Source of the DNA: Nitrospirota bacterium
GTDB taxonomy: Bacteria > Nitrospirota > Thermodesulfovibrionia > Thermodesulfovibrionales > Dissulfurispiraceae
Assembly (NCBI GenBank): GCA_040754455.1
Contig: JBFMCP010000001.1
Span: forward strand, 160,001-224,000
Direction: 5' to 3'
DNA: 64,000 bases
The position numbers and the translations under genes were made by a program. Every line of letters begins with the position of its first letter. The stretch's first letter is position 1. The notes below the pieces were generated by a model, which was given only the letters and a program-made list of their open reading frames with translations, had not been told where the DNA came from and did not search any database. Positions 31,938-56,809 of the stretch are shown here, in pieces.

Positions 31938-32097
31938 AGGCGAGAATGGGTGCGGCAAGTAGCTTTTGAGCGCTTCCTTATACTTCCACTAAGGTTTCAA
32001 ACCCTTAATAACAGCACCTGTTTAATGGAGGAGTGTTGCATTTCTGTTTATAATAAATGCGCATTGAGAAAGTTTCTTGTAGTACCCGTTCCCGCCT
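31938..32097 (+). repeat. ~155-nt structured intergenic element, copy A (most diverged)
   Basis: AGGCGAGAATGGGTGC...GTACCCGTTCCCGCCT; homologous to 43836-43990 and to the reverse complement of 56654-56809. Confidence 0.8.
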
Positions 32098-32134
32098 TTA
32101 GCTCAAATGCGTAACACCAAATTGGATTTTAAAA

Positions 32135-32458
32135 TTATACGGAGATGATATAGATTCCCACTCCCGCCAGCAGCGCTGCAGTGACAAAAAGAAAAAACTG
32201 CAAAGCTCTCAGCAGCAATGGTCCCCGGACATATTCGACAGCTATTCCCCACATGCCGTTGAATCCATGGTATATTGCCGAGATAAGGAATACTGTATCA
32301 AAAGTCTTCCAGAAGGGGTTTGAAAGTCTTCTCATGACAACCTCGTGGCTGATCTGTTCAGGGCCGCTGTAGTGCATGATGATAAAATGGAGGGCAAGCC
32401 CTGCAACGAGAAAGACGCCGGTGATCCTCTGGAAAAGCCATCCCCAGACCCCTTTCAA
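32135..32458 (-). CDS. sdhD: Succinate dehydrogenase hydrophobic anchor subunit
   Basis: TTG start overlapping the sdhC stop; WLFQRITG, HF, YHGFNG...EY. Confidence 0.85.
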   Translation of the reverse strand: MKGVWGWLFQRITGVFLVAGLALHFIIMHYSGPEQISHEVVMRRLSNPFWKTFDTVFLISAIYHGFNGMWGIAVEYVRGPLLLRALQFFLFVTAALLAGVGIYIISV

Positions 32459-32799
32459 TGCGCACCCCCGATGAACGGCACTGCCCCGAACACCGAGAGC
32501 AGGCCGCCGATAATGACCGCCGCCCAGAACAACTTCTTCTGAAACGCGGTCGGGACGCCGAGGTCGAGAAGCACCAAGCGGGTGCCGTTTGCAGCGTGGG
32601 CAACCACCAGGGCGAGGAGACCGACTTCGCTGAGTCTTACGAGAGGGTGCTTCATGAGGCTCGTGATCGCCATGTATGCAGCCGGATCTTTGAGGTGGCT
32701 CAAGACATAGAGATGGACGAAAAGGTACAGCGTCAACAGCACACCGGTGATCCGGTGGATGAGCCATGCCACTGAGCCTGTCTGCAATGCGTACCGCAT
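32455..32799 (-). CDS. sdhC: Succinate dehydrogenase cytochrome b556 subunit
   Basis: WLIHRITG, HAANGTR...D. Confidence 0.88.
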   Translation of the reverse strand: MRYALQTGSVAWLIHRITGVLLTLYLFVHLYVLSHLKDPAAYMAITSLMKHPLVRLSEVGLLALVVAHAANGTRLVLLDLGVPTAFQKKLFWAAVIIGGLLSVFGAVPFIGGAH

Positions 32800-33443
32800 C
32801 AGCCCTTCCTCACCTTTACGCCTTTGTATTTTTTCTCAAGCTCCGACCTGAGCCCGATAAAACTTCCCTTACCTTTCGTCCTGATCACGATATTCCGGCA
32901 TCCATCCTCGACTCCCTCATAGGAAGTGAGAATGCTCTGCATGCTGAAGCCGTATTTTCTGATGATATCCGCCACCTCTTTTATTGAGCCGGGCCTGTCC
33001 TCGATGGAGAGGTATACCCTGTTGCCGCCATGGCGCACGCCGGTGATATCGATGAGGGCATGGAAGATGTCCCGGTCTGATATGATCCCTACAAGCCTCC
33101 CGTTTTCCACAACCGGTAAACACCCTATCATCCTGTCGTAGAGGACCATCGCCGCCTCTTCAACGGGGGTCTCGGGGGTGGTAGTTATCACTTTGGTCTT
33201 CATGATGTCTTTGACCTTTGCTTTAGCGAGGATATAGTGGAGCTCATAGATATCGAGGGTGGTCGCTGACGATGGGGTGAACTCCTTTATGTCCCTGTCC
33301 GATACCATTCCCTTTATCTTGCCCTCTTTAAGCACAGGGAGGTGCTTGATCTTTCTTTCCTTCATCATCCTTACCGCATCTGAAATGCTGTCATCAGGAC
33401 TAACGGTATAGACCTTCTTTGTCATCCAGTCCGAGACGAACAT
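32799..33443 (-). CDS. CBS-pair plus ACT domain protein (AcuB-like)
   Basis: Two CBS domains, then EDRPGSIKEVADII ACT domain. Confidence 0.88.
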   Translation of the reverse strand: MFVSDWMTKKVYTVSPDDSISDAVRMMKERKIKHLPVLKEGKIKGMVSDRDIKEFTPSSATTLDIYELHYILAKAKVKDIMKTKVITTTPETPVEEAAMVLYDRMIGCLPVVENGRLVGIISDRDIFHALIDITGVRHGGNRVYLSIEDRPGSIKEVADIIRKYGFSMQSILTSYEGVEDGCRNIVIRTKGKGSFIGLRSELEKKYKGVKVRKG

Positions 33444-33461
33444 AATCCACCTCCTAAGGTA

Positions 33462-33530
33462 AAATCCTAAATCCGAATTCCTAAATCAGAAACAAAAAGT
33501 CTAGAATTTCGTGCTTAGGATTTCGGATTT
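33462..33530. repeat. Inverted pair of heptamer arrays
   Basis: AAATCCT AAATCCG AATTCCT AAATCAG ... AGAATTT CGTGCTT AGGATTT CGGATTT. Confidence 0.75.
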
Positions 33531-33537
33531 ACAGAAG

Positions 33538-36821: not shown

Positions 36822-36843
36822 CGCTACACTCCCCGATCATTCC

Positions 36844-36875
36844 TGCAGCGCCCTCCTGCAAAAGAGGGCACTGCA
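36844..36875 (-). terminator. Stem-loop between the binding-protein and permease genes
   Basis: TGCAGTGCCCTC-N8-GAGGGCGCTGCA on the minus strand. Confidence 0.55.
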
Positions 36876-36905
36876 TTGTTTAATGTATATGGGAAACGCA
36901 TAAAA

Positions 36906-38096: not shown

Positions 38097-38128
38097 CTCG
38101 TCCTCCTTGTATGATGTTTTACTGAATA

Positions 38129-38902: not shown

Positions 38903-38911
38903 AAGGCTCCT

Positions 38912-40636: not shown

Positions 40637-40717
40637 AACCCCTCTTCCTCATCCCCCCCTGCCATACAAAATCGTATGCTGTTACATGATTACACATTTT
40701 GTCGAAAAAAATCCATA

Positions 40718-40748
40718 TTGACGCGCCTTGATAATGAAATTTATAATG
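40718..40748 (+). promoter_or_regulatory. Sigma70-like promoter with overlapping Fur-box-like sequence
   Basis: TTGACG-N18-TATAAT; GATAATGAAATTTATAATG matches the 19-bp Fur consensus at 14 positions. Confidence 0.4.
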
Positions 40749-40897
40749 CCGATGAAAACATAATAAATAGAAATGCATTGAGAACACAATTGTAACTGAG
40801 TCGAAAATTGACAGCAAAGTGCCAATAAATAGATTAAATTTTAAGCTTTAGATTAAGCACAAAAAGTTATGATACATTATTATTTAAGGAGGTCAAT

Positions 40898-42365: not shown

Positions 42366-43751
42366 CTACACCATCCTCTTCACATCAAGATAGGCATCAA
42401 TATCTTTTTCGGAGAGGAGCCCTGATTCGAGGACGACATCTCTGATCTTACGCTTTTCTTTTACCGCTTTCTTGATCAGCTCGGCAGCCTTCTCATAGCC
42501 GAGGACAGGGGCGAGCGAAGTTGCGATGACGGGGTTTTTATCGAGGAGGTCCTGGATATGACCAACATTGACGACCATGCCTTTGATCGCTTTGTCGGCA
42601 AGCACTCTCATGGCGATCGAGAGCATTTCGATGGATTCGAGGAGCGTAAAGCCGATCACCGGGAGCATGGTGTTCAATTCAAATTCGCCGAGAGAGCAGG
42701 AGATCGTTATTGTCGTATCGTTGCCGATGACCCGCGCGCAGACCATGCGCGCTGCTTCGGGGATCACGGGGTTGATCTTTCCCGGCATGATGGATGAGCC
42801 CGGCTGAAGGGCGGGCAATTGTATTTCGGCGAGCCCTGAATGAGGCCCGCTGTTCATGAGCCGCAGGTCATTGGCGATTTTCATAAGGCTCGCTGCAACC
42901 GTTTTGAGCTGTCCCGAAAGCTCTGAGGTGACATCCATCGAAGCCTGGGCTTCAAAATTATTGCGGGCCCTCTCAAAAGGAATCCCGGTCATCTCGCTGA
43001 TGGTACCGATAACACCATCGGCGAACTCCGGGTGTGCATTGAGGCCGGTGCCGACCGCCGTGCCGCCGAGGGGAAGCTGCGCCAGCCTCGGCAACACACT
43101 CTCGACTCTTTCGATACCGAACTGGATCTGCGCAGCCCATCCTGACATTTCCTGCCCGAAGGTGATGGGCACCGCATCCATAAGGTGGGTCCTGCCGGTC
43201 TTGACGACATCCTTATACTCCTGCTGCTTTTCGGCAATGGCGCCATGCAGATGTTTGAGCGAGGGGAGAAGTTTATCTCGTACCTCGAGGTATGCCGCTA
43301 TGCGGATTGCCGAAGGGACAACGTCATTCGAAGATTGTCCCTTATTCACATGATCATTGGGGTGGACAGGCGCAGTGGTTACTTTCTTCCCGGTGAGTCT
43401 CTCGTTCGCCCGCGTCGCAACGACCTCATTGACATTCATATTCGTCGAGGTGCCGCTCCCGGTCTGGAAAATGCCGAGAGGGAAATGGTCCTTATGCCTG
43501 CCTTCGATGATTTCCTTGCAGGCCTGGAGCATGGCATCGGACAAATCCTTCGGAAGCAGGCCGAGGCCGGTATTGGTCACTGCGGCTGCGTATTTAATGA
43601 TAGCGATTGAGCGGATGAGTACTTCGGGAAAGGCGGGTGCGCTTACAGAGAAGTTTTCGATTGCCCGCTGCGATTGGGCTCCCCAATAGGCATGCGCAGG
43701 CACTCTGATCTCTCCTATGCTGTCATGTTCGATACGGTGCTCTTCTGACAT
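42366..43751 (-). CDS. fumC: Class II fumarate hydratase
   Basis: QTGSGTSTNMN, GRTHLMDA, PGSSIMPGKINP. Confidence 0.9.
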   Translation of the reverse strand: MSEEHRIEHDSIGEIRVPAHAYWGAQSQRAIENFSVSAPAFPEVLIRSIAIIKYAAAVTNTGLGLLPKDLSDAMLQACKEIIEGRHKDHFPLGIFQTGSGTSTNMNVNEVVATRANERLTGKKVTTAPVHPNDHVNKGQSSNDVVPSAIRIAAYLEVRDKLLPSLKHLHGAIAEKQQEYKDVVKTGRTHLMDAVPITFGQEMSGWAAQIQFGIERVESVLPRLAQLPLGGTAVGTGLNAHPEFADGVIGTISEMTGIPFERARNNFEAQASMDVTSELSGQLKTVAASLMKIANDLRLMNSGPHSGLAEIQLPALQPGSSIMPGKINPVIPEAARMVCARVIGNDTTITISCSLGEFELNTMLPVIGFTLLESIEMLSIAMRVLADKAIKGMVVNVGHIQDLLDKNPVIATSLAPVLGYEKAAELIKKAVKEKRKIRDVVLESGLLSEKDIDAYLDVKRMV

Positions 43752-43818
43752 AGTGCCATTATATCAAATATCCTTCAGGAAAATTCTAAATTCGAACAAA
43801 TTACAAAATCTATTCTGA

Positions 43819-44028
43819 TAGGACATGCGCGATGAAGTCAGGAAGGAGTACGGAAAGGAGCTTGCTCGCGCCTCCTGTTCTTCCACCAAGACCTCAAATT
43901 CTTGATAACAACTATTTTTAATAAAGAGTGAGGCATTTCTATTCCAATAAGTGCGCATGAGAAAGCTCCCTGGAGTGCCCCTTCCTGCCTCTGCATGCTC
44001 CGAGCAGTTCCACAACGCATATGTCTTA
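43819..44028 (+). repeat. ~155-nt structured element, copy B (core 43836-43990), with degenerate terminal inverted repeats
   Basis: Core AGTCAGGAAGGAGTAC...GTGCCCCTTCCTGCCT; ends TAGGACATGCGC and GCATATGTCTTA; flanked by inverted heptamer arrays. Confidence 0.82.
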
Positions 44029-44061
44029 TTTCGTTTAGGATTTCGGGTTTAGAATATGCTG

Positions 44062-45072: not shown

Positions 45073-45075
45073 GCA

Positions 45076-45345
45076 CTACTCGGTCTCGACTTTTTTCTTC
45101 GTCGTCTTTTTGGCGGCGGCCTTCCTGGATCCGGCTTTTTTCACGCCCGCATGAGCAGGCGCTTTTTTCTTCGCTGCGGCCTTTGCCTCTTCGCCGTTGC
45201 CGCCGCGGGATTCGCCGCCATTGCCGTGGCGTTGCCTCAAGATGCGTTCCGCCTCAAACCAGTTCTCGAGGTCGCGGCCCGGTACCCTGCCGCTTTTTTC
45301 GTACAACTCATGGGCAAGCTTTGCAATCTCCTCATGCGATATCAT
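45076..45345 (-). CDS. DUF2934-domain protein with Lys/Ala-rich tail
   Basis: EIAKLAHELYEKSGR..G...NWFEAE, then KAAAKKK repeats. Confidence 0.8.
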   Translation of the reverse strand: MISHEEIAKLAHELYEKSGRVPGRDLENWFEAERILRQRHGNGGESRGGNGEEAKAAAKKKAPAHAGVKKAGSRKAAAKKTTKKKVETE

Positions 45346-45469
45346 TGTTATACCTCCGCAGACAATAGTCTACTCAAATGATATCGCTATTTTTTCCCGA
45401 ATGCAACAGGCTTCAGACGTGCAGTCGATTCGGGAATACCGAACTTCGACGATCCCCTCCCGTTATCCA

Positions 45470-45513
45470 CCTCTGCATGCATTCCAAAACTATTCCCAAA
45501 CGCGTAAGTCCTA
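45470..45513 (+). repeat. Remnant right end of the repeated element
   Basis: CCTCTGCATGC...AACGCGTAAGTCCTA aligns with 43988-44028. Confidence 0.6.
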
Positions 45514-45515
45514 TA

Positions 45516-46265
45516 TCAGCAGAGGGATGCCTGCTTTCCGAATCCCTTCTTCAGCCGTTCGACAATTGTGCCGGTGAAGCCCTTATCAAGCCATTGGCGG
45601 AGTTTCAGACGGTCAAAGAGGTGGGCTGTCTTCGAGTAGTAATTCATCCGGCTGATGTACACATACTCTGCAGAGGGGCGGATGAGGTCCACGAGCACAT
45701 CAGGGTCCATCGGCAGCAGCGGGCCGATGAAAACATAGGTTCGTATTCCCTTCTCATGCAATTCACGCAATGCCTTCACCCGCTCCGTAATCGGTGGAGC
45801 ATATGGTTCGAAGATCTTCCTCATCCTCTCGTCATCGGTCGTGATGGTCAGGCCTACATCGACGTCTTCGAATTGTGCAAGCAGATCAGCATCCCGCACG
45901 ACAAGCGGAGACTTGGTGAGTATGCTCACCGGGAATTGATGTTCAAGCAGCACCCCGAGACACTGCCTGGTGAGCCGGTACGTTGCCTCAACCGGCTGGT
46001 AGGCATCGGTGACGGAGCTGACCATAACCGTGCCTTTCCTTGCTCTGCCGAGCTGTTTCTTCAGCACCTCCGGCGCGTTCACCTTCACATCAACGAACGT
46101 CCCCCACGGTTCGGGATGGTTGGTATATTTCTTCATGAATGTGGCGTAACAATATCGGCATGCGTGAGAGCATCCTGTATAGGGATTGAGACAGTAATCG
46201 GCACCGGGGATCCCGGACTTCGAGAGGACGGACTTGGCATGTACTTCTTTGATGATAAGGCTCAT
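45516..46265 (-). CDS. SPL-like radical SAM protein
   Basis: NPYTGCSHACRYCYA, SSVTDAYQP.E, TKSPLV.RD. Confidence 0.88.
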   Translation of the reverse strand: MSLIIKEVHAKSVLSKSGIPGADYCLNPYTGCSHACRYCYATFMKKYTNHPEPWGTFVDVKVNAPEVLKKQLGRARKGTVMVSSVTDAYQPVEATYRLTRQCLGVLLEHQFPVSILTKSPLVVRDADLLAQFEDVDVGLTITTDDERMRKIFEPYAPPITERVKALRELHEKGIRTYVFIGPLLPMDPDVLVDLIRPSAEYVYISRMNYYSKTAHLFDRLKLRQWLDKGFTGTIVERLKKGFGKQASLC

Positions 46266-46382
46266 GTATTATTCTAACATTGCGAGGACAATCAGGTTAT
46301 GGAACCAAAGCAGTACTTCCTAAGGTTGTGAAAGGCTCTCAGATATGCAATAATACTTTTCAACCTTTTACGAGGAGGTAGT

Positions 46383-46976
46383 ATGAGATATTTGAGAGTG
46401 GCCCTTGTACTTGCCTTGACCTTGTTGCTCGGCATCTCTGCCTACGCCGAGCCTAAGAACAGAAAATTCACCAGAGAGGAGATCAAAAAAATGGCTGAAA
46501 CCAGAGCAATCATCGAAACTAAGTTCGGAAATATGGAGCTCAAGTTTTTCCCCGATGTTGCCCCCAACCACGTGAACAATTTCATCGAGCTCGCAAAAAA
46601 GGGATTCTACGATGGCACCACCTTCCACCGCGTCATCCCCGGCTTCATGATCCAGGGCGGCGACCCCAACTCAAAGGATCCCGACAAATCGAGGCACGGC
46701 ATGGGCGGCCCCGGATATACCGTCAAAGCTGAATTCAATGCAACGCCGCACAAGCGCGGCACCCTCTCCATGGCGCGGTCCGGACATCCCGACAGCGCAG
46801 GGTCGCAGTTTTTCATTTGTGTTGCCGATGCCCGTTTTCTCGACAGGCAATACACCGCCTTCGGCGAGGTTGTTTCGGGCATGGAAGTAGCTGATAAGAT
46901 CGTGAGCCAGCCGAGGGACCGGAATGACAATCCCAACGAGCGTCTCGAGATGAAAGTCAAGATCGTGGAGAAGTAA
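46383..46976 (+). CDS. Cyclophilin-type peptidyl-prolyl isomerase
   Basis: FHRVIPGFMIQGGD, LSMAR, SAGSQFFI. Confidence 0.93.
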   Translation: MRYLRVALVLALTLLLGISAYAEPKNRKFTREEIKKMAETRAIIETKFGNMELKFFPDVAPNHVNNFIELAKKGFYDGTTFHRVIPGFMIQGGDPNSKDPDKSRHGMGGPGYTVKAEFNATPHKRGTLSMARSGHPDSAGSQFFICVADARFLDRQYTAFGEVVSGMEVADKIVSQPRDRNDNPNERLEMKVKIVEK

Positions 46977-46980
46977 TATC

Positions 46981-47949
46981 ATGGGAATACAGGAAGAGGC
47001 AAAAGAGCTGAGAAAATTCTGGGGCGGCTTCTGGGCCCCGCGGGTGATCCTCACCGCCAACAATTACAGAGTGTTCGATCACCTCGGGACACCGAAAACC
47101 GCCGATCAGGTCGCAAAGGCGATCAAAGCGGATAAAAGGGCCACCGGGATCATGCTCGATGCATTGGTCGGGCTCGGCTTGCTGAAAAAAACTGCTAAAA
47201 CCTATAAGAACACGCCGCTCGCAACGCGCTTTCTGGTAAAGGACAGCCCTTATTATCAGGGCGACATCATAAGGCACGCCGATGCGCTCTGGCAGAAGTG
47301 GTCTGACCTGGATGCCATCGTAAAGACCGGGAAGCCCAGCGCCAGAGGCCGCGACCACGCCTCCTTTATTAAAGGAATGCACAACATCGCGGTCTTCAAG
47401 GCACCCCCGGTCATTGATGCCATAGGTCTGAAGGGTGTAAAGAAGGCGATGGACCTCGGCGGCGGCCCCGGCACCTATGCAATAGAACTGGCGAAGAGAG
47501 GAATCGATGTCACCATCTTCGACCTGCCCGAAACCATAAACGTCGCAAAAGAGATGGTGAAGAAGTCGGGACTGAAGAATATCAGTTTCATAAAGGGCAA
47601 CATCTTCTCCGACAGCATCAATGGCACCTATGATCTCATCCTCATGAGTCAGCTGCTCCATGCTTTTTCCGTTGAGGAGAGCCTCATCGCTCTGAGAAGA
47701 TGCAAAGAGGCGCTGAACCCCGGCGGCAGGGTGGTAATCCATGAGTTCTTTATTGATACGACCATGACCGCCCCCCTTCCGGCCGCACTGTTTTCAGTCA
47801 ACATGCTCGTGAACACACCGGCCGGACGCTGCTATCCCCCTGCGGAAATGAAACAGTGGTTGAAGCAGCTCGGGTTCAAAGAGATCAAAGAAACGATGCT
47901 GGAAGATACCGTGCTGGTATCAGGAAAAAAGCCGAGGTACCTAAGCTAA
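46981..47949 (+). CDS. O-methyltransferase (dimerisation plus Methyltransf_2 domains)
   Basis: N-terminal winged helix; DLGGGPG, FDLP, LLH. Confidence 0.85.
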   Translation: MGIQEEAKELRKFWGGFWAPRVILTANNYRVFDHLGTPKTADQVAKAIKADKRATGIMLDALVGLGLLKKTAKTYKNTPLATRFLVKDSPYYQGDIIRHADALWQKWSDLDAIVKTGKPSARGRDHASFIKGMHNIAVFKAPPVIDAIGLKGVKKAMDLGGGPGTYAIELAKRGIDVTIFDLPETINVAKEMVKKSGLKNISFIKGNIFSDSINGTYDLILMSQLLHAFSVEESLIALRRCKEALNPGGRVVIHEFFIDTTMTAPLPAALFSVNMLVNTPAGRCYPPAEMKQWLKQLGFKEIKETMLEDTVLVSGKKPRYLS

Positions 47950-47954
47950 ACCTC

Positions 47955-47987
47955 AAAGGCTTGTCCGCTAAGGGCAGGCCTTTCTTA
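47955..47987. terminator. Terminator between convergent genes
   Basis: AAAGGCTTGTCC-gctaa-GGGCAGGCCTTT. Confidence 0.65.
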
Positions 47988-47988
47988 T

Positions 47989-48639
47989 TTACAGCTCCAT
48001 TTTGAGTTTCTTGGAGAGCATATCTGCCCTCCGCACCGGCTCGGGGATTCTGTATTTTCCGGTGCAGCTCAAAACGATTTTTATTGAGCTTTCGAGATCA
48101 ATTTTGTGTCCCACTGAAACAAACACCGGATTCGTGTTGTCCCTCGTCCTCAAAACCGCGCCGATAACATTTCCTTTATATTTAAGAGGAGACCACGAGC
48201 CTTTTTTATTCCCCGGTGCCTCATATCTGCCGACAAGCAACGACTTCGCGCAGCCTATCGTCGGCATATCGAGCAACACGCCGATGTGCGACGCGATGCC
48301 TAATCCGCGAGGATGAGCGATCCCCTGCCCGTCAATAAGGAGGACATCAGGCTTTGCGCTTAGTTTGTTAACAGCACTAATGAATGCAGGCCCCTCTCTG
48401 AACGACAGGAATCCGGGAATATAAGGGAAGGTGACCTTCTCGACTGCATGAGCATCTTCGATCAGAGTTATTTCAGGATACTTATAAAGACATACAGCCG
48501 CGATAATCGTATCACCCATAAACGCCGCATCGACACCGGCAATCAGCGACAGCTCACGATCAAGGGGAACGGCCTTCACCTCTTCTCTGAGCCGGTTCTG
48601 AATATCCCTGGCTTCTTCTATGTCCTTCGGCCAGTGCAT
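47989..48639 (-). CDS. nfi: Endonuclease V
   Basis: AGVDAA, FPYIPGFLSFRE, DGQGIAHPR.LGIASH, PEPVRRAD. Confidence 0.94.
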   Translation of the reverse strand: MHWPKDIEEARDIQNRLREEVKAVPLDRELSLIAGVDAAFMGDTIIAAVCLYKYPEITLIEDAHAVEKVTFPYIPGFLSFREGPAFISAVNKLSAKPDVLLIDGQGIAHPRGLGIASHIGVLLDMPTIGCAKSLLVGRYEAPGNKKGSWSPLKYKGNVIGAVLRTRDNTNPVFVSVGHKIDLESSIKIVLSCTGKYRIPEPVRRADMLSKKLKMEL

Positions 48640-48795
48640 AAGATAAATTATAATCTTAAATGGAAAAGTTAACTTCTTTCTGAAAGTTTTCATCTATGGA
48701 ATCGTCCGCGGCAGCTCATGTGATCTCCGATTATCCCCGACTCTCCACCGTCAAGGATAGTGCGTATCTGAAGGCTTGCCGAAGAAAGCGTCAGA

Positions 48796-48826
48796 GTGAA
48801 CCTCCCCGCGGCAAGCCGACGGGGAA
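48796..48826. repeat. REP-like / IS200-IS605-end-like hairpin
   Basis: GTGAACC-TCCCCG-CGGC-AA-GCCG-a-CGGGGA; no transposase nearby. Confidence 0.4.
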
Positions 48827-49164
48827 CTCTGCAAAGCTTTCGTTAGATTTTGAGGATACGCTTATGTCGGCGGCTACGAGAATTCTATTCGCTACGCGGG
48901 GTGAGCATAGAGACTAAGTTCTGATCCATCAGCAGGAGGCGTGGCCGGCATATATGCCTATTTTACTTTAATAAAACATTCCCCTGCCGGATTCACTCCC
49001 CTTCTATTTCCCCCTGTTAACGGCCCTCTTTATTTTGAAGCATAGCGGAATCCGTGACTAATCGGTGACCAGCCGTCTGGTACAATCCTTTTCTGAAGGA
49101 AACGGTTTTATTACGTCCCTGGCAGTAATTTCATTTTATTTCATTATTCAGAGGAGGACCGGGC

Positions 49165-49818
49165 ATGAACGGGAGATGTTTCAGAAGGGCAGTCTTACTT
49201 GCAGCACTGGTTTTATCAGTCATTGCATTAGCTGTGCAGCCGGCAATGGCGGCAAAATGGGACGACACGCCGTCGGGCCTTGACCTTGTCATTGAGAAGG
49301 TGACAGTAGACCTCGATGGCGGCACGCTCACGATCAAGGGGCAAAACTTCGACAACGGGAGCCAGCCGGAAGTGTATCTTGGGGGCAGCAAACTCGATCT
49401 CATTCTGCCGTACTCCGAAACTGAGATTGTGGCGTGGCTGCCAGCAGACATTGCAGACGGCAGCTATAAGCTGACCGTTATGACCGGCACTGCGGTGAAG
49501 CATTACGATGCGTACAGCCTGACGATCGGAGCAGTGGGACCGCAGGGACCGAAAGGTGACACCGGAGCTACTGGTGCACAAGGTCCTCAGGGACCACAGG
49601 GTATACAGGGCGTGGCAGGCCCTGCCGGACCAACCGGGCCAGAAGGGCCGCAGGGAGTAGCCGGAGCGAATGGCCTTGCCTGCTGGGACCTCAACAGCAA
49701 CAGCACGTGCGATCTCCCCGATGAAGACAGCAATGGCGATCACGCCTTGCCGAGCAGACTTGTGCATGCACATTGCAATTGGTTCTCGAAGAGTTCTTAT
49801 GTAAATCTTCTATTCTGA
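49165..49818 (+). pseudogene. Exported collagen-like protein, probably C-terminally truncated
   Basis: Signal peptide, Ig-like domain, 17 Gly-X-Y triplets, [19 protein letters not shown], then an abrupt change to non-coding-like sequence. Confidence 0.6.
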
Positions 49819-49911
49819 ACATCCTTTATATTGGAATACTAGAAGCTGAAAGACACAGTTATCGTGATCTGGAACTATCGCGTAGTACAGGCAGAAAGGC
49901 GCATACTTTTC

Positions 49912-50015
49912 GTTATTGCGAGCCCGGCCTTATCGGGCGCGGCAATCTCGTCTTTTTACTGCTGCATAGAAGATCAACGGAGAGATTACCACGTCGCTTC
50001 ACTCCTCGCAATGAC
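49912..50015. repeat. Palindromic intergenic element
   Basis: Inverted arms GTTATTGCGAG...GGCAATCTC and GAGATTACC...CTCGCAATGAC. Confidence 0.75.
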
Positions 50016-50101
50016 AAGACAACACCCCGCCGATGCGGACTTCATTCGTTAATCCTCCGTTTCCCTTCTTGCCATTTCCGCTCGATAGCAGGTGTACTAA
50101 A

Positions 50102-52858
50102 CTACGACTTCTTCAGATACTTTCCGGTATACGATTTCGGCGCGTTTTTCAATTCTTCCGGTGTGCCTTCGAAGATGATCATGCCGCCTTTGTCGCCGCC
50201 TTCGGGGCCGAGGTCCACGATCCAGTCGGCTTGCTCGATAACGTCGAGGTTGTGTTCGATGACGACAACGGTGTTGCCGCCGTCGATGAGTTTGCGGATG
50301 ATGCGCATAAAGAGCATGACATCGTTGTAGTGAAGACCTACGGTCGGCTCATCGAGGATATAGAGGACGCCCCGTTCAAGCGCTCTGGAGTTTGTTGATA
50401 ACTCTGCGCAGATCTTCAACCGCTGCGCCTCTCCGCCTGAAAGCGTCGTCGCGGACTGCCCGAGCCGTATGTAGCCGAGGCCGATGTCGCGCATCAGGGC
50501 GAGCTTCTGCTTCACTTCCGGCACATCGGTGAAGAGCTCGAGGGCATCATCGACGGTCATGCTCAGCACATCGCTGATGCTCTTGCCGCGGTACTTCACC
50601 CGGAGCGCCTCAGGCTTGTAGCGCTTGCCCTTGCACTCTTCGCAGGTCACGAAGATGTCCTCGAAGAAGTACATCTCCATTCTCTGATATCCCTCGCCCT
50701 CGCATGCCTCGCACCTCCCGCCGGGAACATTGAAGGAGAAGAAGCCCGGCGAAAAGCCGTAGGCCTTTGCCTCCTGCTGCTGGGAGAAGAGCTTTCGGAT
50801 AGCATCAAAGACCTTGAGGTAGGTCATGGGGTTCGAACGCGGCGTTTTCCCGATGGGGCTCTGATCGATAAGCCGCACGCCTTTTATTCTTTCGAGTCCT
50901 TCTATCTTCTTATGCGGGAGCGGCTGCTCCGGCTCTATTCTGAAGTGGCGGGCGAGTGCATGATAGAGCGTTTCCACCACAAGGCTGCTCTTTCCCGATC
51001 CCGATACGCCGGTGACAACGGTCAATGCCTCAAGCGGAATCCTGAGCGTGACATTCTTGAGATTGTTGCCGGTGGCATTGTAGAGCATCAGCGAACGCTC
51101 TTCAGAGCGCAGCAGCTGTTCCTTGATCCGCTGATGAGCGGCATAATGATGACTGCCGTCGCCCCGCAGATAACGCGAGGTCAGCGTGTCCGTCTTCAGA
51201 AATTTATTCATGGGTCCGGAGAAGATGATCTCACCGCCCAGGTGTCCGCCGTAGGGACCGAGTTCCACCACCCAATCCGCGGATGAGATGATGTCCTTGT
51301 CATGCTCTACCACCACAATGGTATTGCCGAGCGATGCCAGCTCGCGCATGATCTCGGCGACCCTCTTCGTGTCCCTCGGGTGCAGACCTATGGTCGGCTC
51401 ATCGAGCACATAGAGCGTGCCGGTGAGCGCCGAGGCGAGCTGGTTCGAGAGATTCACCCTCTGGTACTCACCGCCCGAGAGCGTTTTCGCCTGCCTGCTC
51501 AGGGTCAGGTATTCCAGGCCGACGCGCTCGAGGAAGCGGAGCTTCATGATGATTTGCCGTAATGCCTCCTTGGCGATGTCCCGCTGCATGGGGGAGAGCT
51601 GAAGGTTCTTGAACCACTCGAGGGTCTGCGCTACCGGCAGTTCGGACAGCTGGGCGATATCGATGCCGTCTATCTTATAGGCGAGCGCCTGGTCGCAGAG
51701 CCGCTTCCCTTTGCATTTAGGACAGGTCACCGGGCTCCGGTACCTGCTCAGCAGTACCCGCACATGGAGTTTATAGCGCTTGCTCTCCATATCTTCGAAG
51801 AAACTATTAATGCCATAGAATTTTTCGTTGCCTTTGAAGAGTAGGCTCTTTTCCTGTTTGGTCAGTTCACTGAACGGCTTAGTGACATCGACGCCCGCGG
51901 CTTTGAGGCCCTTGATCATCTGGGTCTTCCACCATTTGTAGCCGGGCTTTTCCCAGAGATCGATCGCCCCCTTTGCGAGCGAGAGCGATGGATCAGGCAC
52001 AATGAGGTCCTCGTCGTAGATCAGGATATTGCCGAACCCCTTGCATTCGGGGCAGGCGCAGACAGGATGGTTGAAAGAGAAAAAGATCGGTGTCGGCTCG
52101 GGAAGCGAAATGTTGCACTCGTCGCAGGTGTTCTTCGAAGAGAATCTCAGCTCGATCATCTCCTGCGTCTCGTGCGCTTTGAGCACAATAACCTTCAGCC
52201 GCTCGTGACCCTCTTTCCATGCCATCTCGATAGAGTCCGACAGGCGCGGCTCGTTCCGCAGCACGAGCCGGTCGAGCACCACTTCGGTGGGGCCGGCATG
52301 GTCCCCGGGAAGATCGGCGATGTCCACCGCCTCTCCATTAAACCATACCCGGTGAAAGCCGCGCTGCCGCAGCATCTCGAGCGGTTCGGAGCTTTCGAAG
52401 ATGATCAGCGCCCTGCCGTTCTGGTGTTTTTCGAGGAGCTCGGCAACGATCTGCGTGGTGTCCCACCGCCTGATTTCTCTGCCGCACCGCGGGCAATAGG
52501 GAGTGGCAATCCGCGAGTAGAGTATTCTGAAGAGGTCATACAGCTCGGTAAGCGTCCCTACGGTAGAGCGTGAGCCTTTGACCGGGTTTTTCTGCTCCAA
52601 CGCTATAGCGGGACGTATATTATAGATCGCGTCGACATCGGGCCGGTCGAGCTTTTCAAGGAAGAGGCGCGCATAGGTGGACAGCGATTCGATGAAGCGC
52701 CACTGACCTTCGGCGAAGATGGTATCGAAGGCCAGCGAGGATTTCCCCGATCCTGAAACGCCTGTTACGACAATGACTTTATTATGGGGGAGCCGGAGCG
52801 TAATGTCCTTGAGGTTATTCTGTTTTGCCCCTTCAATGATTAACTCACGATTCGACAT
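50102..52858 (-). CDS. uvrA: Excinuclease ABC subunit A
   Basis: Two GVSGSGKSS Walker A motifs, two LSGGE signatures, zinc fingers. Confidence 0.95.
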   Translation of the reverse strand: MSNRELIIEGAKQNNLKDITLRLPHNKVIVVTGVSGSGKSSLAFDTIFAEGQWRFIESLSTYARLFLEKLDRPDVDAIYNIRPAIALEQKNPVKGSRSTVGTLTELYDLFRILYSRIATPYCPRCGREIRRWDTTQIVAELLEKHQNGRALIIFESSEPLEMLRQRGFHRVWFNGEAVDIADLPGDHAGPTEVVLDRLVLRNEPRLSDSIEMAWKEGHERLKVIVLKAHETQEMIELRFSSKNTCDECNISLPEPTPIFFSFNHPVCACPECKGFGNILIYDEDLIVPDPSLSLAKGAIDLWEKPGYKWWKTQMIKGLKAAGVDVTKPFSELTKQEKSLLFKGNEKFYGINSFFEDMESKRYKLHVRVLLSRYRSPVTCPKCKGKRLCDQALAYKIDGIDIAQLSELPVAQTLEWFKNLQLSPMQRDIAKEALRQIIMKLRFLERVGLEYLTLSRQAKTLSGGEYQRVNLSNQLASALTGTLYVLDEPTIGLHPRDTKRVAEIMRELASLGNTIVVVEHDKDIISSADWVVELGPYGGHLGGEIIFSGPMNKFLKTDTLTSRYLRGDGSHHYAAHQRIKEQLLRSEERSLMLYNATGNNLKNVTLRIPLEALTVVTGVSGSGKSSLVVETLYHALARHFRIEPEQPLPHKKIEGLERIKGVRLIDQSPIGKTPRSNPMTYLKVFDAIRKLFSQQQEAKAYGFSPGFFSFNVPGGRCEACEGEGYQRMEMYFFEDIFVTCEECKGKRYKPEALRVKYRGKSISDVLSMTVDDALELFTDVPEVKQKLALMRDIGLGYIRLGQSATTLSGGEAQRLKICAELSTNSRALERGVLYILDEPTVGLHYNDVMLFMRIIRKLIDGGNTVVVIEHNLDVIEQADWIVDLGPEGGDKGGMIIFEGTPEELKNAPKSYTGKYLKKS

Positions 52859-52949
52859 CCAGGTATTTTAACATTTTAACTCTAGTCGGAAAAACAAGAC
52901 GAGGCTCCATTGGAGGAAATGGCGCTCCGCTTTGTTTTATAATGAAAGG

Positions 52950-54026
52950 ATGCTGCAGTTGCTCAGAGATAAAATCCTTGCCGGGGAGAGGCTCACCAGG
53001 CAGGATGCCATAGAACTGTTCCGGAGTGATGATCTCTTCACCATGGGCAGGCTTGCCGCAAACATTGCAGAAAAATACAACGGCAGGAACGCCTATTTCA
53101 TCGTCAATCGGCACATCAACCCTACCAATATATGCATCAACCGTTGCAAGTTCTGCGCCTTCAGCCGTTCAAAGGGAGAAGAAGGGGCCTTCGAGCTTAC
53201 CATCGAAGATATCCTTGCAAAGCTCGACGCAGCCTTCAAAAGCGCGCATCATATTACCGAAGTCCACATTGTGGGAGGGCTGCACCCCGACTGGCCCTTC
53301 GAACACTATCTTGATATGCTCAGAGCAATAAGAGCAAAGTATCCCACTCTCGCGATCAAGGCCTTTACTGCGGTCGAAATCGATTACATGGCAAAGAGCA
53401 GCGGTCTTACCGTAACAGACACCCTAAAGGCCCTCAAAAACAGCGGCCTCGAACTCATGCCCGGCGGCGGAGCGGAAATCTTTGCTGAAGAGATACGGAA
53501 CAAGCTCTGCCCTGAAAAGATATCGGGCAGGCGGTGGCGTGAGATCATGGAGGCGGCGCACAGCGTCGGCATAAAGACCAATGCCACCATGCTCTATGGT
53601 CATCTCGAGAGCATCGAGGACCGGGTCGACCACCTCATGCTGCTGAGGGAGGTGCAGGACAGGACCGGCGGATTCCAGGCTTTTATTCCACTCGCTTATC
53701 ATCCGAAGAACACCGAAATCGGCGGATGGTATTCATCCGGCATCGATGACCTGAAGACCATCGCCGTCAGCAGGCTGGTGCTCGACAACTTTGCCCACAT
53801 CAAGGCCTACTGGATCATGCTCGGCGAAAAGATCTCACAGGTCGCTCTGCTCTTCGGCGCCGACGATATCGACGGCACGATCATCGAAGAGAAGATCACC
53901 CATATGGCGGGGGCCATGACCGGCGAGGGAATGGCAAAAGACGAGCTGATCGGCCTCATCAAAAAAGCCGGCAAAATCCCGGTCGAGCGCGATGCCTTTT
54001 ACCAGCGCATAAAAGTTTATGAATAA
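52950..54026 (+). CDS. mqnE: Aminofutalosine synthase
   Basis: NPTNICINRCKFCAF, PGGGAEIF, HIKAYWIMLG. Confidence 0.9.
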   Translation: MLQLLRDKILAGERLTRQDAIELFRSDDLFTMGRLAANIAEKYNGRNAYFIVNRHINPTNICINRCKFCAFSRSKGEEGAFELTIEDILAKLDAAFKSAHHITEVHIVGGLHPDWPFEHYLDMLRAIRAKYPTLAIKAFTAVEIDYMAKSSGLTVTDTLKALKNSGLELMPGGGAEIFAEEIRNKLCPEKISGRRWREIMEAAHSVGIKTNATMLYGHLESIEDRVDHLMLLREVQDRTGGFQAFIPLAYHPKNTEIGGWYSSGIDDLKTIAVSRLVLDNFAHIKAYWIMLGEKISQVALLFGADDIDGTIIEEKITHMAGAMTGEGMAKDELIGLIKKAGKIPVERDAFYQRIKVYE

Positions 54027-55107
54027 CATTACACAAAGAATAGATAAACAGACCGCATTAGACCTTTTGAAAAATGCCGATTTGCTTGACCTCGGTGCAC
54101 AAGCTGATACCATCAGAAAAGACCTGCACCCGGAGGGAGTGGTCACCTTTGTTGTCGACCGGAATATCAACTATACCAACGTCTGCATCAACCAGTGTAC
54201 GTTCTGCGCCTTCTACCGGTCGGCAGACAGCCCCGATGCCTATATCCTCTCCAGAGAGGAGATATTCAAGAAGATCGACGAGACGATCGCTCTCGGCGGC
54301 ACGCAGATCCTCCTGCAGGGAGGCCTTCATCCCGATCTGGATTTGGAATACTATGTCGACCTTTTGAGGTCAATCAAGGAACGCTATACGATCAATGTCC
54401 ACGGCTTTTCCCCACCGGAAATCACCTATCTCGCCCAAAAGCATCACCTCACGATCAGGGAGGCGCTGACCGTGCTCAGACAAGCCGGGCTCGACTCCAT
54501 CCCCGGAGGCGGCGCTGAAATGCTCTCCGACAGGGTACGGGAAGTACTGAGCCCCAAGAAGATAAAGTCTTCCCAATGGTTGAAAGTCATGGAGGAGGCA
54601 CACAAGATCGGGATGCGGACCACGGCCACCATGATGTTCGGGAGCATTGAGGGTCCCGAAGATATCATCGACCACCTCGATGCTCTTAGAAGCCTCCAGG
54701 ACAGGACCGGCGGGTTCACCGCGTTCATTCCCTGGTCATTCCAGCCTGGCAACACGGAACTCTTAAAACAGAATTCGGGGGCCGGGAGCCAGAAGTCAGG
54801 AGCTCAATCAAAAATCAACACTGCTACTGCTGTTGATTATTTGAGAGTGCTCGCCCTCTCACGGATGTACCTCGACAATATTAAGAATATCCAGGCATCA
54901 TGGGTCACCCAGGGGCTGAAGCTCGCCCAGGTTGCCCTTCGCTTCGGCGCCAATGACTTCGGCTCGACCATGATCGAAGAGAATGTAGTAAGGGCCGCAG
55001 GGGTAAGTTACACGGTATCGAAGGAAGATATCATTCAGGCGATCAAGGGCGCCGGGTTCAAAGCAGCGCAGCGGGATACCTACTACACGATCCTGCAGAA
55101 TTTCTAA
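54019..55107 (+). CDS. mqnC: Cyclic dehypoxanthinylfutalosine synthase
   Basis: VDRNINYTNVCINQCTFCAF, NIQASWVTQG, GSTMIEENVV. Confidence 0.92.
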   Translation: MNNITQRIDKQTALDLLKNADLLDLGAQADTIRKDLHPEGVVTFVVDRNINYTNVCINQCTFCAFYRSADSPDAYILSREEIFKKIDETIALGGTQILLQGGLHPDLDLEYYVDLLRSIKERYTINVHGFSPPEITYLAQKHHLTIREALTVLRQAGLDSIPGGGAEMLSDRVREVLSPKKIKSSQWLKVMEEAHKIGMRTTATMMFGSIEGPEDIIDHLDALRSLQDRTGGFTAFIPWSFQPGNTELLKQNSGAGSQKSGAQSKINTATAVDYLRVLALSRMYLDNIKNIQASWVTQGLKLAQVALRFGANDFGSTMIEENVVRAAGVSYTVSKEDIIQAIKGAGFKAAQRDTYYTILQNF

Positions 55108-55252
55108 GCTTCTTTCCGCCCCCTCCCTGCCTTCATTGTGCATGTCCTGTTTTGATGCGTCTGCCCTGAGAATGCTCTGCGCTGGACTGAACAAAGGAGA
55201 TACAATACGCTATAATATATCCACCTTTATTTCCCCGTTTCCAGGAGGTCGT

Positions 55253-56197
55253 ATGTCTGATACTCTCTATGATGTGATCATCATCGGCGGCGGGCCCGCC
55301 GGCCTCAGTGCAGCACAGTACGCAGCACGGGCCAAGATGAAGACCGTTGTCCTCGATAAATCAGCTACTGCAGGCGCCCTCGCCTTCGCAAGCCTGATAG
55401 AAAACTACCCGGGCATCGAAACCCCTTTGTCCGGCAAGGAACTGCTCGATATTTTCCGCAGACAGGCCATCGGCTTTGGCGCGGAGTATGTCGAGGCCCA
55501 GGTAATCGGTGCTGCTCTCCAAGGGGAGACTAAGGAGGTCTTTACCATGGAGAAGACCTACCAGGGCAAGACGGTGATTATCGCCACCGGCTCCATGGGA
55601 AGAAAGGCGACCATCAAGGGCGAGGCGGAATTCCTCGGCAGGGGTGTCAGCTATTGCGCCATCTGCGATGCCGCGTTCTACCGCGGCAAGACCGTCTGCG
55701 TCCTCGGGGATTCCGAAGAGGCGGTAAAAGAAGCGGGGCTGCTCACCCGTTTCGCCGAAACAGTGTACCTCATCGCCCCCTCACAGAAGTTGAAAGTGGC
55801 GGAAGACAATCCCACGCTCGCCATTCAAAACCTGAAAGTGATCCTCGGCCACACCACCACCGCTATCGAAGGTGCCGAGGTCGTAGAGAAGGTGCGCCTC
55901 AAAGATGCACAGGGGAGGGAGACGACGCTCGCTCTCGACGGCGTCTTCGTCTATCTGCACGGAAGCAAACCCATCATCGATTTTCTGCAAGGGGCGGTCG
56001 AGGTCAGCGAGGATGGGTGCATTGCGACCAATAAAATGACCGAGACCTCTCTTCCCGGCGTCTTCAGCGCGGGTGATGTGACCTGCACCGAGGTCAGACA
56101 GGTCATCATTGCCGCAGCGCAGGGATGCATCGCAGCCCTCTCTGCGGAAAAGCATGTCTTCCACCGGAAGAGAAGAAAATTCGACTGGCACGGATAG
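55253..56197 (+). CDS. trxB: Thioredoxin reductase
   Basis: GGGPAG, ENYPG, GVSYCAICD, SAGD; AGGAGG RBS. Confidence 0.88.
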   Translation: MSDTLYDVIIIGGGPAGLSAAQYAARAKMKTVVLDKSATAGALAFASLIENYPGIETPLSGKELLDIFRRQAIGFGAEYVEAQVIGAALQGETKEVFTMEKTYQGKTVIIATGSMGRKATIKGEAEFLGRGVSYCAICDAAFYRGKTVCVLGDSEEAVKEAGLLTRFAETVYLIAPSQKLKVAEDNPTLAIQNLKVILGHTTTAIEGAEVVEKVRLKDAQGRETTLALDGVFVYLHGSKPIIDFLQGAVEVSEDGCIATNKMTETSLPGVFSAGDVTCTEVRQVIIAAAQGCIAALSAEKHVFHRKRRKFDWHG

Positions 56198-56209
56198 CAT
56201 AACCGGTGA

Positions 56210-56617
56210 ATGGGTGAAAAGGGAATGGAATATACCGAACTGAAAAAAATGGTGCTCGACTATATGGAGAAGGGATTCCTCGAAAATATCATCGATATGT
56301 TCAAGCACGATGCGTCCCTCTATCCGCTGATCATCGATATGATACGGGACGAACGGATTAGGGTCCGGCTGGGGGTAACAGCGCTCGTCGAAGAACTGGC
56401 AAAGGTAAAGCCCGAACCGCTCATCAGGCTCATCCCCGATATTGCCTCTCTCTTACAGGACGTGAACCCCACGGTCCGCGGCGACGGTGCAAACCTTCTG
56501 GATATCATCAAGCATAAAGATGCGCTCCCTTATCTGCTGAATGCCGAGAGCGACGAGGACGATGATGTCAGAATGATCGTGCGCGAAGCAATCAAAGAGA
56601 TCAGCGGGCTCAATTAG
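56210..56617 (+). CDS. HEAT-repeat protein
   Basis: D....VR helical repeats (DERIRVR, DVNPTVR, DDDVR). Confidence 0.8.
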   Translation: MGEKGMEYTELKKMVLDYMEKGFLENIIDMFKHDASLYPLIIDMIRDERIRVRLGVTALVEELAKVKPEPLIRLIPDIASLLQDVNPTVRGDGANLLDIIKHKDALPYLLNAESDEDDDVRMIVREAIKEISGLN

Positions 56618-56637
56618 ATAGCTACGACAGCGACTAC

Positions 56638-56809
56638 GGGACTTACGCGACGCGGGCAGGAACGGGCACTCCAAGAAGCTTTCTCATGCGCCTTTATTCT
56701 ATATCGATATGCCTCACCTCTCAATTAAAGAGCAGTTATCAAGAATGTGAGGTCTTGGTGGAAGTAGAAGGAAGCGCTAAAAAGCTTCTTTCCGCACCCA
56801 TTCCTGCCT
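56638..56809 (-). repeat. ~155-nt structured element, copy C (core 56654-56809), with GGGACTTACGCG end
   Basis: Inverted homolog of copies A and B; 15-bp closing stem on the minus strand. Confidence 0.82.

Follow-up and report, generated by a model that had tools for sequence, protein, structure and literature searches.

Described bacterial MITEs include Correia/NEMIS in Neisseria, RUP in pneumococci, and MITEAba12 in Acinetobacter. ERIC/IRU sequences of enterobacteria are imperfect palindromes of ~130 to 150 nt that occur in tens of copies in intergenic regions within operons, with sharp ends and moderate divergence among the copies, and they are not known to have an associated duplication or transposase. 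REP/REPIN sequences are dispersed hairpin repeats that lack a target duplication and for whose movement the folding of one strand matters. Together with RAYT, they serve as models for the movement of folded single-stranded DNA, as do IS200/IS605 and integron attC sites, the last of which form an array of sites in the same orientation between cassettes next to an integrase.

The window analyzed here, a stretch of 64,000 nt from the 3.27-Mb genome of a Nitrospirota bacterium (G000), contains three related sequences that probably represent a miniature mobile element of palindromic structure, MITE-like, non-coding, and non-autonomous. Like Correia/NEMIS, RUP, and MITEAba12, the element measures 100 to 200 nt, has no ORF, possesses inverted-repeat arms that fold into a hairpin, and occurs in tens of intergenic copies with strain-variable presence. 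In a distant genome (G188), its form further shares with bacterial MITEs the terminal repeats, a duplication of fixed length, and a co-resident IS with similar ends. The likeness is meant as one of description, and it has limits: the duplication is undetectable in G000 and most other genomes, one core is kept phylum-wide under different or absent outer ends, and the wobble pairs are strand asymmetric. ERIC/IRU sequences are also similar by description, in palindrome size, intergenic operon setting, copy number, sharp ends, and divergence, but they belong to a different phylum, and the present family has a relative with a clear transposon footprint, that of G188. With REP/REPIN, the element has in common the dispersed hairpin-forming repeats and the absence of a target duplication; however, its arms are not short palindromes with a GTAG head, and there is no repeat-flanked RAYT-like gene. 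The sole PF01797 match in G000 (contig C46) is an IS200-like frame of 113 to 133 aa that is unlinked to the element, and neither copies nor notable repeats were found beside this Y1 gene; a REPIN/RAYT system was thus rejected.

Three copies of a hairpin core in the window

Copy A (31938..32097, + strand; CM R1, 142.9 bits), copy B (43836..43990, + strand; CM R1, 148.3 bits), and copy C (56654..56809, - strand) are ~155-nt hairpin cores that were recovered by both BLAST and nhmmer. When used as a BLAST query against its own genome, copy C matched C1:216654-216809(-), C1:203836-203989(+), and C1:191938-192096(+), corresponding to 56654-56809, 43836-43989, and 31938-32096 of the window, and nhmmer concurred, which places three ~155-nt copies where the original prediction had put them. 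The pairwise identities among A, B, and C range from 0.69 to 0.80, and copy C is 92% identical to a copy on another contig (G000:C26:20979-21134). The minimum free energies are -54.1 kcal/mol for copy A (z = -5.0) and -71.2 kcal/mol for copy C (z = -8.9). The fold that had been proposed for copy C is its minimum-free-energy structure, with a 15-bp closing stem followed by a 3x3 GGA/GGA loop and then by AAGAAGCUUU/AAAGCUUCUU, GCGC/GCGC, and CCUCAC/GUGAGG. The three covarying pairs named together with that fold are also seen in the alignments: at pair 5/169, A has G-C where B and C have A-U, pair 10/164 is G-C in B and U.G in A and C, and pair 23/151 is G-C in B and A-U in C. Copies A and B each lie between two ORFs, all of them on the - strand, and the strand singled out in the prediction is indeed antisense to these genes.

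At site B, a 268-nt stretch (43774..44041, + strand), consisting of core B with 62 nt upstream and 51 nt downstream, forms one long hairpin (RNA fold, -72.5 kcal/mol). At copy C, the contigs of other copies cease to match at 56655 and 56810, leaving loose ends, and this divergence marks the limits of the repeated unit.

Copies across the genome and the case for a structured RNA

In G000 as a whole, BLAST and nhmmer searches recovered 27 copies at full length together with 8 fragments, in line with the guess that the sequence would be abundant. The elements are 128 to 160 nt long, share a mean identity of 73%, and in all copies fold into a single rod-like hairpin with covarying arms (mean z = -5.5 for the + strand), with a small difference in folding energy between the strands (-58.2 versus -55.4 kcal/mol, p = 0.03). 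The closing stem, of 16 bp in G000, extends to the outermost positions of the repeated unit, where the core ends read AGGCAGG... / ...CCTGCCT, and homology stops sharply at the core ends, with an identity of 0.78 inside and 0.29 outside (background, 0.26). The best-conserved part is the unpaired block GCGCAU..GAGAAAGCU, with identities of 0.88 to 0.91. In two copies (C2:178904 and C4:24817), the GGA/GGA loop now forms perfect pairs through several coordinated changes in one arm.

No reading frame is common to 26 copies, in agreement with the claim that no ORF is conserved. A frame is open through the element in 5 of these copies on the + strand and in 14 on the - strand, and the latter split 5/5/4 over the three phases, a spread on which a conserved ORF was dismissed. 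According to approximate ORF calls, no long ORF (>200 aa) runs across 25 of the 27 copies, the exceptions being C26:13203, where two called ORFs each overlap one end, and C9:50671; by the same calls, co-directional ORFs flank 22 of the 27 copies. Relative to the flanking ORFs, 14 copies are antisense and 8 are sense. The copies are scattered over 20 contigs, with neighboring ORFs of at least 130 aa at 24 of the 27 loci, and no recurrent neighbor protein was found beside the 27 copies. An integron attC array was rejected on this dispersal, the occurrence of both orientations, and the lack of a recurrent neighbor.

Several of these features would also suit copies that encode a structured RNA or have been exapted as parts of one. 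Such copies might form a small RNA family that stands on its own, or they might act in cis within operon transcripts, on mRNA decay, on termination, or as an internal promoter; ERIC and Correia elements have been reported as cis elements of this type. The strong rod fold, the conserved unpaired block, a core that is far better kept than its flanks, and the position of most copies inside co-directional ORF runs are consistent with such a role, and 13 of 26 copies have a -35/-10-like pair at one shared alignment column (TTGAGA-17-TAGAAT in copy C). However, this promoter-like site reaches a score of only 7 to 10 of 12, and in only 12 of 27 cases does the gene downstream run in its direction. No conserved sequence that might act as a promoter of the whole rod precedes the 5' end; identity drops there in one step from 0.78 to 0.29. 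In addition, the copies occur in both orientations to the neighboring genes, resident copies gather A.C mismatches as often as G.U pairs, and the copies are lacking in the sister species and in a close strain. An Rfam covariance-model search of the whole window at the gathering score detected only a tRNA, and permissive Rfam scans of copies B and C returned only noise with E > 1 that differed between the two copies. The statement that the element is not a named family thus stands for Rfam and for a single text search, and the proposal of a multicopy structured ncRNA, given no upstream conservation, no Rfam match, and both orientations, gained no positive support. We consider a structured-RNA reading quite improbable; the family is probably a genomic parasite of a common type rather than a novel RNA gene.

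Presence and absence in strains and relatives

The empty-site comparison covers copy B; at copy C, the contigs are interrupted within the element, and other copies give rise to the joints seen there. In an X6 contig (record 17, 21.5 kb) from a strain diverged by ~4 to 5%, copy B is absent and 268 nt are missing at site B, with 43773 joined to 44042 through a single C, while contigs of runs X4 and X5 contain the copy. Since the loss amounts to 268 nt and not 155 nt, it may have arisen by deletion instead of marking an empty site. Searches of G001, a member of the same genus, by BLAST and CM found zero copies; the matched flanks of site B are separated there by an 84-nt gap, versus 259 nt in G000, and a different rod element of ~195 nt occupies site C. 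BLAST over 40 relatives gave 0 matches, and the CM had matches in 10 of the 60 genomes searched from the family and in 4 of the 150 from the phylum, showing diverged homologs to be patchy across the phylum and to include those of other genera. A degenerate 19-mer pattern gave at least 110 single matches in unrelated taxa, and nhmmer found nothing beyond the pattern in those 110.

The same ispA-dxs site is occupied in G053 and G022, where the cores of the copies are 93% identical and the flanks 71 to 82%. In 4 of 4 other genomes of the G053 genus, the element is absent from ispA-dxs and CM searches found no copy anywhere, and ancient conservation was therefore set aside in favor of independent insertions at a hot spot. 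The element is multicopy and confined to intergenic DNA, its presence varies from strain to strain and from species to species, and it has homologs in other genera of the phylum.

An IS66-type footprint in a distant genome

G188 contains at least 68 matches to the element, and 30 aligned copies have a mean identity of 89%. A sequence-only HMM finds 28 of these 30 cores, and the G000 and G188 consensus sequences share 85 of 143 positions, supporting the homology of the cores. The G188 core is flanked by terminal inverted repeats of 15 to 16 nt beginning GTAAC (GTAACTATTCAGC), the terminal repeat being GTAACTATTCAGCTA / TAGCTGAATAGTTAC, and the unit as a whole is bordered by 8-bp target-site duplications. 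Among the 26 of the 30 aligned copies with both ends located, the two 8-mers agree at 8/8 positions in 14, at 7/8 in 6, at 6/8 in 4, and at 3/8 or fewer in 2, that is, at 6/8 or more in 24. G188 orientation relative to the flanking ORFs is antisense in 14 cases and sense in 4.

G188 also has four matches to PF03050 (IS66 DDE), and one IS contig (L239), which carries a 543-aa ORF for an ISBst12-type transposase, has the ends GTAATAGTTCAGCC / GGGCTGAACTATTAC; these agree with the MITE terminal repeat in 10 of 14 positions. For ISDge4 of Deinococcus geothermalis (IS66 family, ISBst12 group), PMC12898284 gives repeats of GTGACTACTCAGCA / GTAACTGCTCAGCA and an 8-bp direct repeat, and PMC12888890 gives the classic IS66 repeats as GTAAGCG... 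/ GTAACCG.... The terminal GTAACTATTCAGCT of the G188 form agrees with the ISDge4 repeat GTAACTGCTCAGCA at 11 of 14 positions, and the 8-bp duplications and the PF03050 transposases encoded in G188 are further points in common with the IS66 family and its ISBst12 group. The G188 ends and duplications match the footprint of insertion by an IS66-family (ISBst12 group) DDE transposase. Unlike IS66 family members, the element itself has no transposase, and its core is not found inside the G188 IS66 contigs. Derivation of the core from the interior of the G188 IS66 was rejected, as there is no similarity and only the terminal repeat is common to both; since these contigs share the terminal repeat and not the core, the core may be a passenger in G188.

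G000 differs from the IS66 family and ISBst12 group in having no GTAAC ends, no detectable 8-bp repeat, and no PF03050 gene, and the PF03050 search was likewise without a match in G053, G016, and G015. In G016, G053, G022, G019, and G013, the copies examined lack GTAAC ends, and G015 has other outer repeats. Homology halts exactly at the core, so GTAAC ends do not count as a general feature of the element in G000. No target-site duplication rises above the control level among the 27 G000 copies, a 7/8 direct repeat being present in the flanks of 24 of 27 copies versus 82% of mismatched control pairs and perfect 8-mers in three, the number expected by chance; GT..AC accompanies the flank direct repeats in none of the G000 copies. 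Outer inverted repeats were also rejected for the G000 flanks, where a weak CAGGAC..GCG / CGC..GTCCTG motif is not a general feature. Flank-pair complementarity there is -16.3 kcal/mol for true and -15.5 kcal/mol for mismatched pairs (p = 0.40), 3 of 27 pairs lie beyond the 5% tail of the null, and flank column identity is only 0.3 to 0.4.

Wobble pairs and a possible single-stranded stage

Across the family, 93% of stem cells are paired, versus 71% after shuffling, and the mismatches comprise 35 G.U and 8 A.C (21 sequences from 12 genomes). In G188, they comprise 30 G.U and 0 A.C over 6 columns, counts that share ancestry and so reflect few independent events (at least 6 columns). The resident copies of G000 show 33 G.U and 36 A.C cells outside three columns. 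The claim that G-U pairs form on one strand only therefore comes down, within G000, to three inherited columns, with G.U and A.C about equal elsewhere. Selection for structure, which had also been proposed, is supported for the lineages that propagated (93% versus 71%; 35:8) and not for the G000 residents (33:36).

The one-strand G.U excess in the propagated lineages hints at a single-stranded stage. The core might accordingly move via such a stage of its + strand, with the GTAAC form of G188 as a secondary capture by an IS66-type MITE; the folded DNA could be the substrate of an HUH/tyrosine-type enzyme or of another enzyme specific for structure, or an RNA could be copied back by a reverse transcriptase. 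This proposal agrees with the sharp core boundaries, the absence of a target duplication in G000, the lack of GTAAC ends among the examined copies of five other genomes, the antisense bias of orientation in G188 (14:4) and G000 (14:8), and the repeated insertions at the same intergenic sites. However, the only family with a clear insertion footprint, that of G188, shows a DDE-type 8-bp duplication, the sole Y1/HUH gene in G000 is the one IS200-like copy, without flanking elements, a conserved target motif of 4 to 5 nt was not found 5' of the G000 copies, and the wobble counts on which the proposal draws represent few independent events. Matches to reverse transcriptase (PF00078) occur in G000, G053, and G188 and not in G016 or G001, with no linkage to the element in these five genomes, and this connection was dropped as uninformative. 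Movement of the core in this manner, with capture in G188, seems unlikely. A speculative version, to which we assign a small chance, is that the rod is a self-contained mobile module, kept throughout the phylum, that propagates via a folded single strand, always the same one, with its own insertion enzyme, no target duplication, and a preference for particular intergenic hot spots; its pickup by an IS66-type MITE would have occurred in one genome, and the G.U-only pattern would be its signature.

A probable MITE-like element and its history

The preferred reading, a MITE-like element, is consistent with a sequence that is short (<~300 nt) and non-coding (128 to 160 nt, no conserved frame), bears terminal inverted repeats (the closing stem in G000 and the 15- to 16-nt outer repeats in G188), and is dispersed with insertion polymorphism (27 plus 8 copies in G000, the B stretch lacking in X6, and none in G001). 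A fixed-length duplication (8 bp; 24 of 26 at 6/8 or more) and a co-resident IS with similar ends (10/14) are found in G188, with duplications at the control level and no PF03050 in G000. The idea of a single-strand-folding mobile element was largely borne out by the presence and absence in strains, the patchy distribution, and the inverted repeats and 8-bp duplications of G188. Since the core arms are inverted repeats, the rod can be formed by each of the two DNA strands as well as by an RNA copy. The absence of a detectable target-site duplication in G000 speaks against a MITE, and the strand-asymmetric wobble (35:8 family-wide; 30:0 in G188) speaks against a plain double-strand cut-and-paste element.

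The G000 family is probably old and no longer has a transposase acting on it, so that its copies would drift as orphans; such drift would account for their 73% identity and their equal numbers of G.U and A.C. The "compensatory" changes probably stem mainly from source-copy lineages, or from the correction of one arm against the other, and would not reflect selection on each resident copy.

Implications

These results add an undescribed miniature mobile-element family to a poorly studied, mostly uncultured group and account for intergenic "structured" repeats that are otherwise liable to be annotated as small RNAs. The family is usable as a source of strain-typing markers, and it points to intergenic hot spots where different hairpin elements replace each other. 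The main mechanistic lead is that the same core shows a textbook DDE footprint in one genome and none in others, together with stems that accept G.U but not A.C on one strand. Should this asymmetry stem from a single-stranded intermediate, the element of G188 and its ISBst12-type transposase would be a tractable system for testing whether the internal hairpin of a MITE contributes to its movement.

Copies of the ~155-nt rod in the Nitrospirota genome

The ~155-nt rods probably represent a new family of mobile elements that are miniature and palindromic. The three homologous copies of the original prediction, A (31938 to 32097, + strand), B (43836 to 43990, + strand), and C (56654 to 56809, - strand), were all recovered by a BLAST search of the organism's own genome (G000, in which the window is C1:160001-224000) with copy C, together with 27 further places. 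Iterated nhmmer searches stabilized at 35 nonoverlapping matches, comprising 27 full-length copies (more than 120 of the 156 model positions covered) and 8 fragments. The 26 aligned copies share a mean pairwise identity of 0.73 (range, 0.61 to 0.92), with copy C and C26:20979 being the nearest pair (0.92) and copies A, B, and C being 0.69 to 0.80 identical to each other. The predicted absence of a conserved ORF also holds, as the minus-strand open frames through the element, present in 14 of 26 copies, are scattered 5/5/4 across the three phases.

Every G000 copy is computed to adopt a single rod fold, closed by a stem of 16 bp, followed by a 3x3 GGA/GGA loop, a second stem of 10 to 12 bp, GCGC/GCGC, and a variable apical part. 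Folding energies average -58.2 kcal/mol (z = -5.5) for the element's + strand versus -55.4 kcal/mol (z = -4.3) for the other (Wilcoxon P = 0.03). In the 27-copy alignment, 89.5% of the 943 stem cells are paired, and two-sided changes number 34 versus 12.3 ± 2.7 after shuffling, with none of 500 shuffles reaching this value. Covariation is present in the pairs initially named. The accompanying argument that G-U pairs form on only one strand proved weaker than claimed, since 69 G.U versus 38 A.C cells overall become 33 versus 36 when three columns of inherited wobbles are excluded. Therefore, the resident copies gather mismatches symmetrically, as expected under drift. In C2:178904 and C4:24817, the GGA/GGA loop has become perfect pairs via several coordinated changes confined to one arm, which looks as if, in the DNA itself, one arm had been corrected to fit the other. 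The less likely alternative, that the rods are a noncoding RNA, finds no positive support. At gathering scores, Rfam matched just one sequence in the whole window, a tRNA bearing a long variable arm (25488 to 25571, + strand, 49.5 bits), and none of the copies, and scanning copies B and C at permissive thresholds returned unrelated matches, all with E values above 1.

Genomic setting and limits of the element

Approximate ORF calls place no long ORF (more than 200 amino acids [aa]) across 25 of the 27 copies. The ends of C26:13203 are overlapped by called ORFs of 486 and 208 aa, one per end, a 237-aa ORF overlaps one end of C9:50671, and short ORFs of 80 to 99 aa are the sole overlap in five more copies. 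Between codirectional ORFs, 14 copies are antisense and 8 are sense, while 4 lie between divergent ORFs and 1 lies between convergent ORFs; no recurring neighbor protein was found around them. Homology among the copies ends abruptly at the core, with mean pairwise identity dropping from 0.78 over its first 20 positions to 0.29 across the 30 nt upstream and 0.26 beyond, and the match of contigs of other copies aligned to copy C breaks off at 56655 and 56810. No target site duplication was found in the 90-nt flanks of the 27 copies, where a 7/8 direct repeat occurs in 24 versus 82% of mismatched control pairs. Some G000 copies show a weak inverted motif outside the core (CAGGAC..GCG/CGC..GTCCTG), which was rejected as a general feature.

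Several other sequences adjoin or lie within the copies. Tandem 7- to 8-nt repeats (AAATCCGA AATCCCAA ACTCGAAA TTCTAAAT, inverse on the far side) adjoin copies A and B at 31890 to 31930, 43778 to 43800, and 44030 to 44058; short repeats are also noted at L206 and L190 near dxs, and related genomes carry similar heptamer arrays (CTTCTGA, five times, and TTTGAGA/TTTGAAA), with dozens of 90 to 100% matches there. An extra ~35-nt 3' flank (..CCACC..CTGAATTTCAAAAC) is common to four to five copies (C3:119442-119475, C4:24785-24816, C4:48676-48710, C33:4887-4920, and C26:20945-20978), and the 9-mer AATTTCAAA occurs 38 times in G000, 4 of them at the 3'-flank position of copies. Inside the element, a promoter-like -35/-10 pair directed to the 3' end (TTGAGA-17-TAGAAT in copy C, ~56690 to 56725, - strand; TAGAGA-17-TATAAT in C34:18396; alignment A5, column 93 onward) ranks first among such sites in 13 of the 26 copies, and a perfect TATAAT occupies the corresponding position in the element of G188, a distant genome of the phylum.

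Presence and absence among strains

Differences between related genomes speak for mobility. Neither BLAST nor the covariance model found a copy in the same-genus genome G001, in which the gap between the matched flanks of site B is 84 nt versus 259 nt in G000. The exact intergenic site of copy C is filled in G001 by a different, ~195-nt rod (C19:17424-17649; L058:45-270). This unrelated family, with ends AGAGCCTCTAAC... and ...GTTAGACGCTCT, is multicopy in both genomes, BLAST giving 49 matches for G001 versus 12 for G000 (including L062, L064, L066, and L068); one fragment (G000:C22:12270-12384) lies 6 nt from a ~155-nt copy. When public contigs were aligned to 43000 to 57500, copy B was present in strains X4 and X5, and a 21.5-kb contig of strain X6 (~4 to 5% diverged) joined 43773 to 44042 with a single C between. 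The missing 268 nt, which include copy B and fold as a single hairpin, exceed the core, so the gap may be a deletion instead of a clean empty site. The sole Y1_Tnp (IS200-like) gene of G000 (C46:14982-15281; L035), a 113- to 133-aa frame matching the profile from position 22 on, has no notable flanking repeats.

Homologs across the phylum

A covariance model built from 26 G000 copies detected full-length (~155-nt) homologs in 10 of the 60 further genomes surveyed from the same taxonomic family (1 to 6 copies each) and in 4 of the 150 that sampled the phylum. When 21 sequences from 12 genomes were aligned and checked by hand, the two outer stems proved 93.0% paired, versus 71.1 ± 1.3% when shuffled and at most 54% with partners slid, and 21 of 26 pairs show two-sided changes. 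G053 and G022, belonging to different genera, each have the element between ispA and dxs, at the same intergenic site, with cores 93% and flanks 71 to 82% identical. Ancient conservation of this copy was rejected, because the element is missing from the site in four of four further genomes from the genus of G053 (spacers of 10, 48, 95, and 95 nt, some with other hairpins), and the covariance model found it nowhere else in them; the two copies are therefore read, from sequence comparison, as independent insertions at a hot spot. Small palindromic DNA has a hot spot in this spacer, which among six related genomes measures 10, 48, 95, 95, or 189 nt, with differing hairpin-forming inserts (L244 to L247; alignment A7).

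In G188, the decisive relative, which belongs to another taxonomic family, at least 68 matches occur in 2.5 Mb, with a mean identity of 89% (30 aligned). A sequence-only HMM of G000 copies matches 28 of the 30 cores from G188. The consensuses of G000 and G188 have 85 of 143 positions in common. The G188 core is flanked by GTAACTATTCAGCTA and TAGCTGAATAGTTAC, giving a unit of 185 to 187 nt, and in the 26 of 30 aligned copies with both ends located, the 8 nt outside the unit are identical in 14, alike at 7/8 in 6 and at 6/8 in 4, and at 3/8 or fewer in 2. This resembles the 8-bp direct repeat of ISDge4 (ISBst12 group), whose terminal repeats are GTGACTACTCAGCA/GTAACTGCTCAGCA (PMC12898284). The IS66-family DDE transposase (PF03050) has four matches in G188, on short contigs, and none in G000, G053, G016, or G015. 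One of these contigs ends in GTAATAGTTCAGCC/GGGCTGAACTATTAC, sharing 10 of 14 positions with the repeat of the MITE (a miniature transposable element with inverted repeats). The core may be a passenger in G188, since the IS66 contigs show no similarity to it and copies from five other genomes lack the GTAAC ends. At G188:C201 (L241:1766-1778), a terminal repeat begins within a truncated IS66 transposase remnant, suggesting insertion of the MITE within a copy of the IS.

In the propagated lineages, + strand stem mismatches comprise 35 G.U versus 8 A.C in the 21-sequence alignment, with G.U equaling or exceeding A.C in 10 of 11 genome labels. The G188 closing stem has 30 G.U versus 0 A.C (six columns, 480 cells). 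Relative to flanking codirectional ORFs, the + strand in G188 is antisense in 14 cases and sense in 4. The opposite bias would, as we reason, follow from deamination of whichever strand is more exposed. Read most simply, the pattern means that propagation includes a step at which the + strand has to fold. Shared ancestry leaves few independent events behind these counts. Among the 10 best-ranked of 218 papers matched in a literature search, none joins "miniature inverted-repeat" with Nitrospirae or Thermodesulfovibrio. The family is ordinary in kind, and in G000 it is probably inactive and orphaned.
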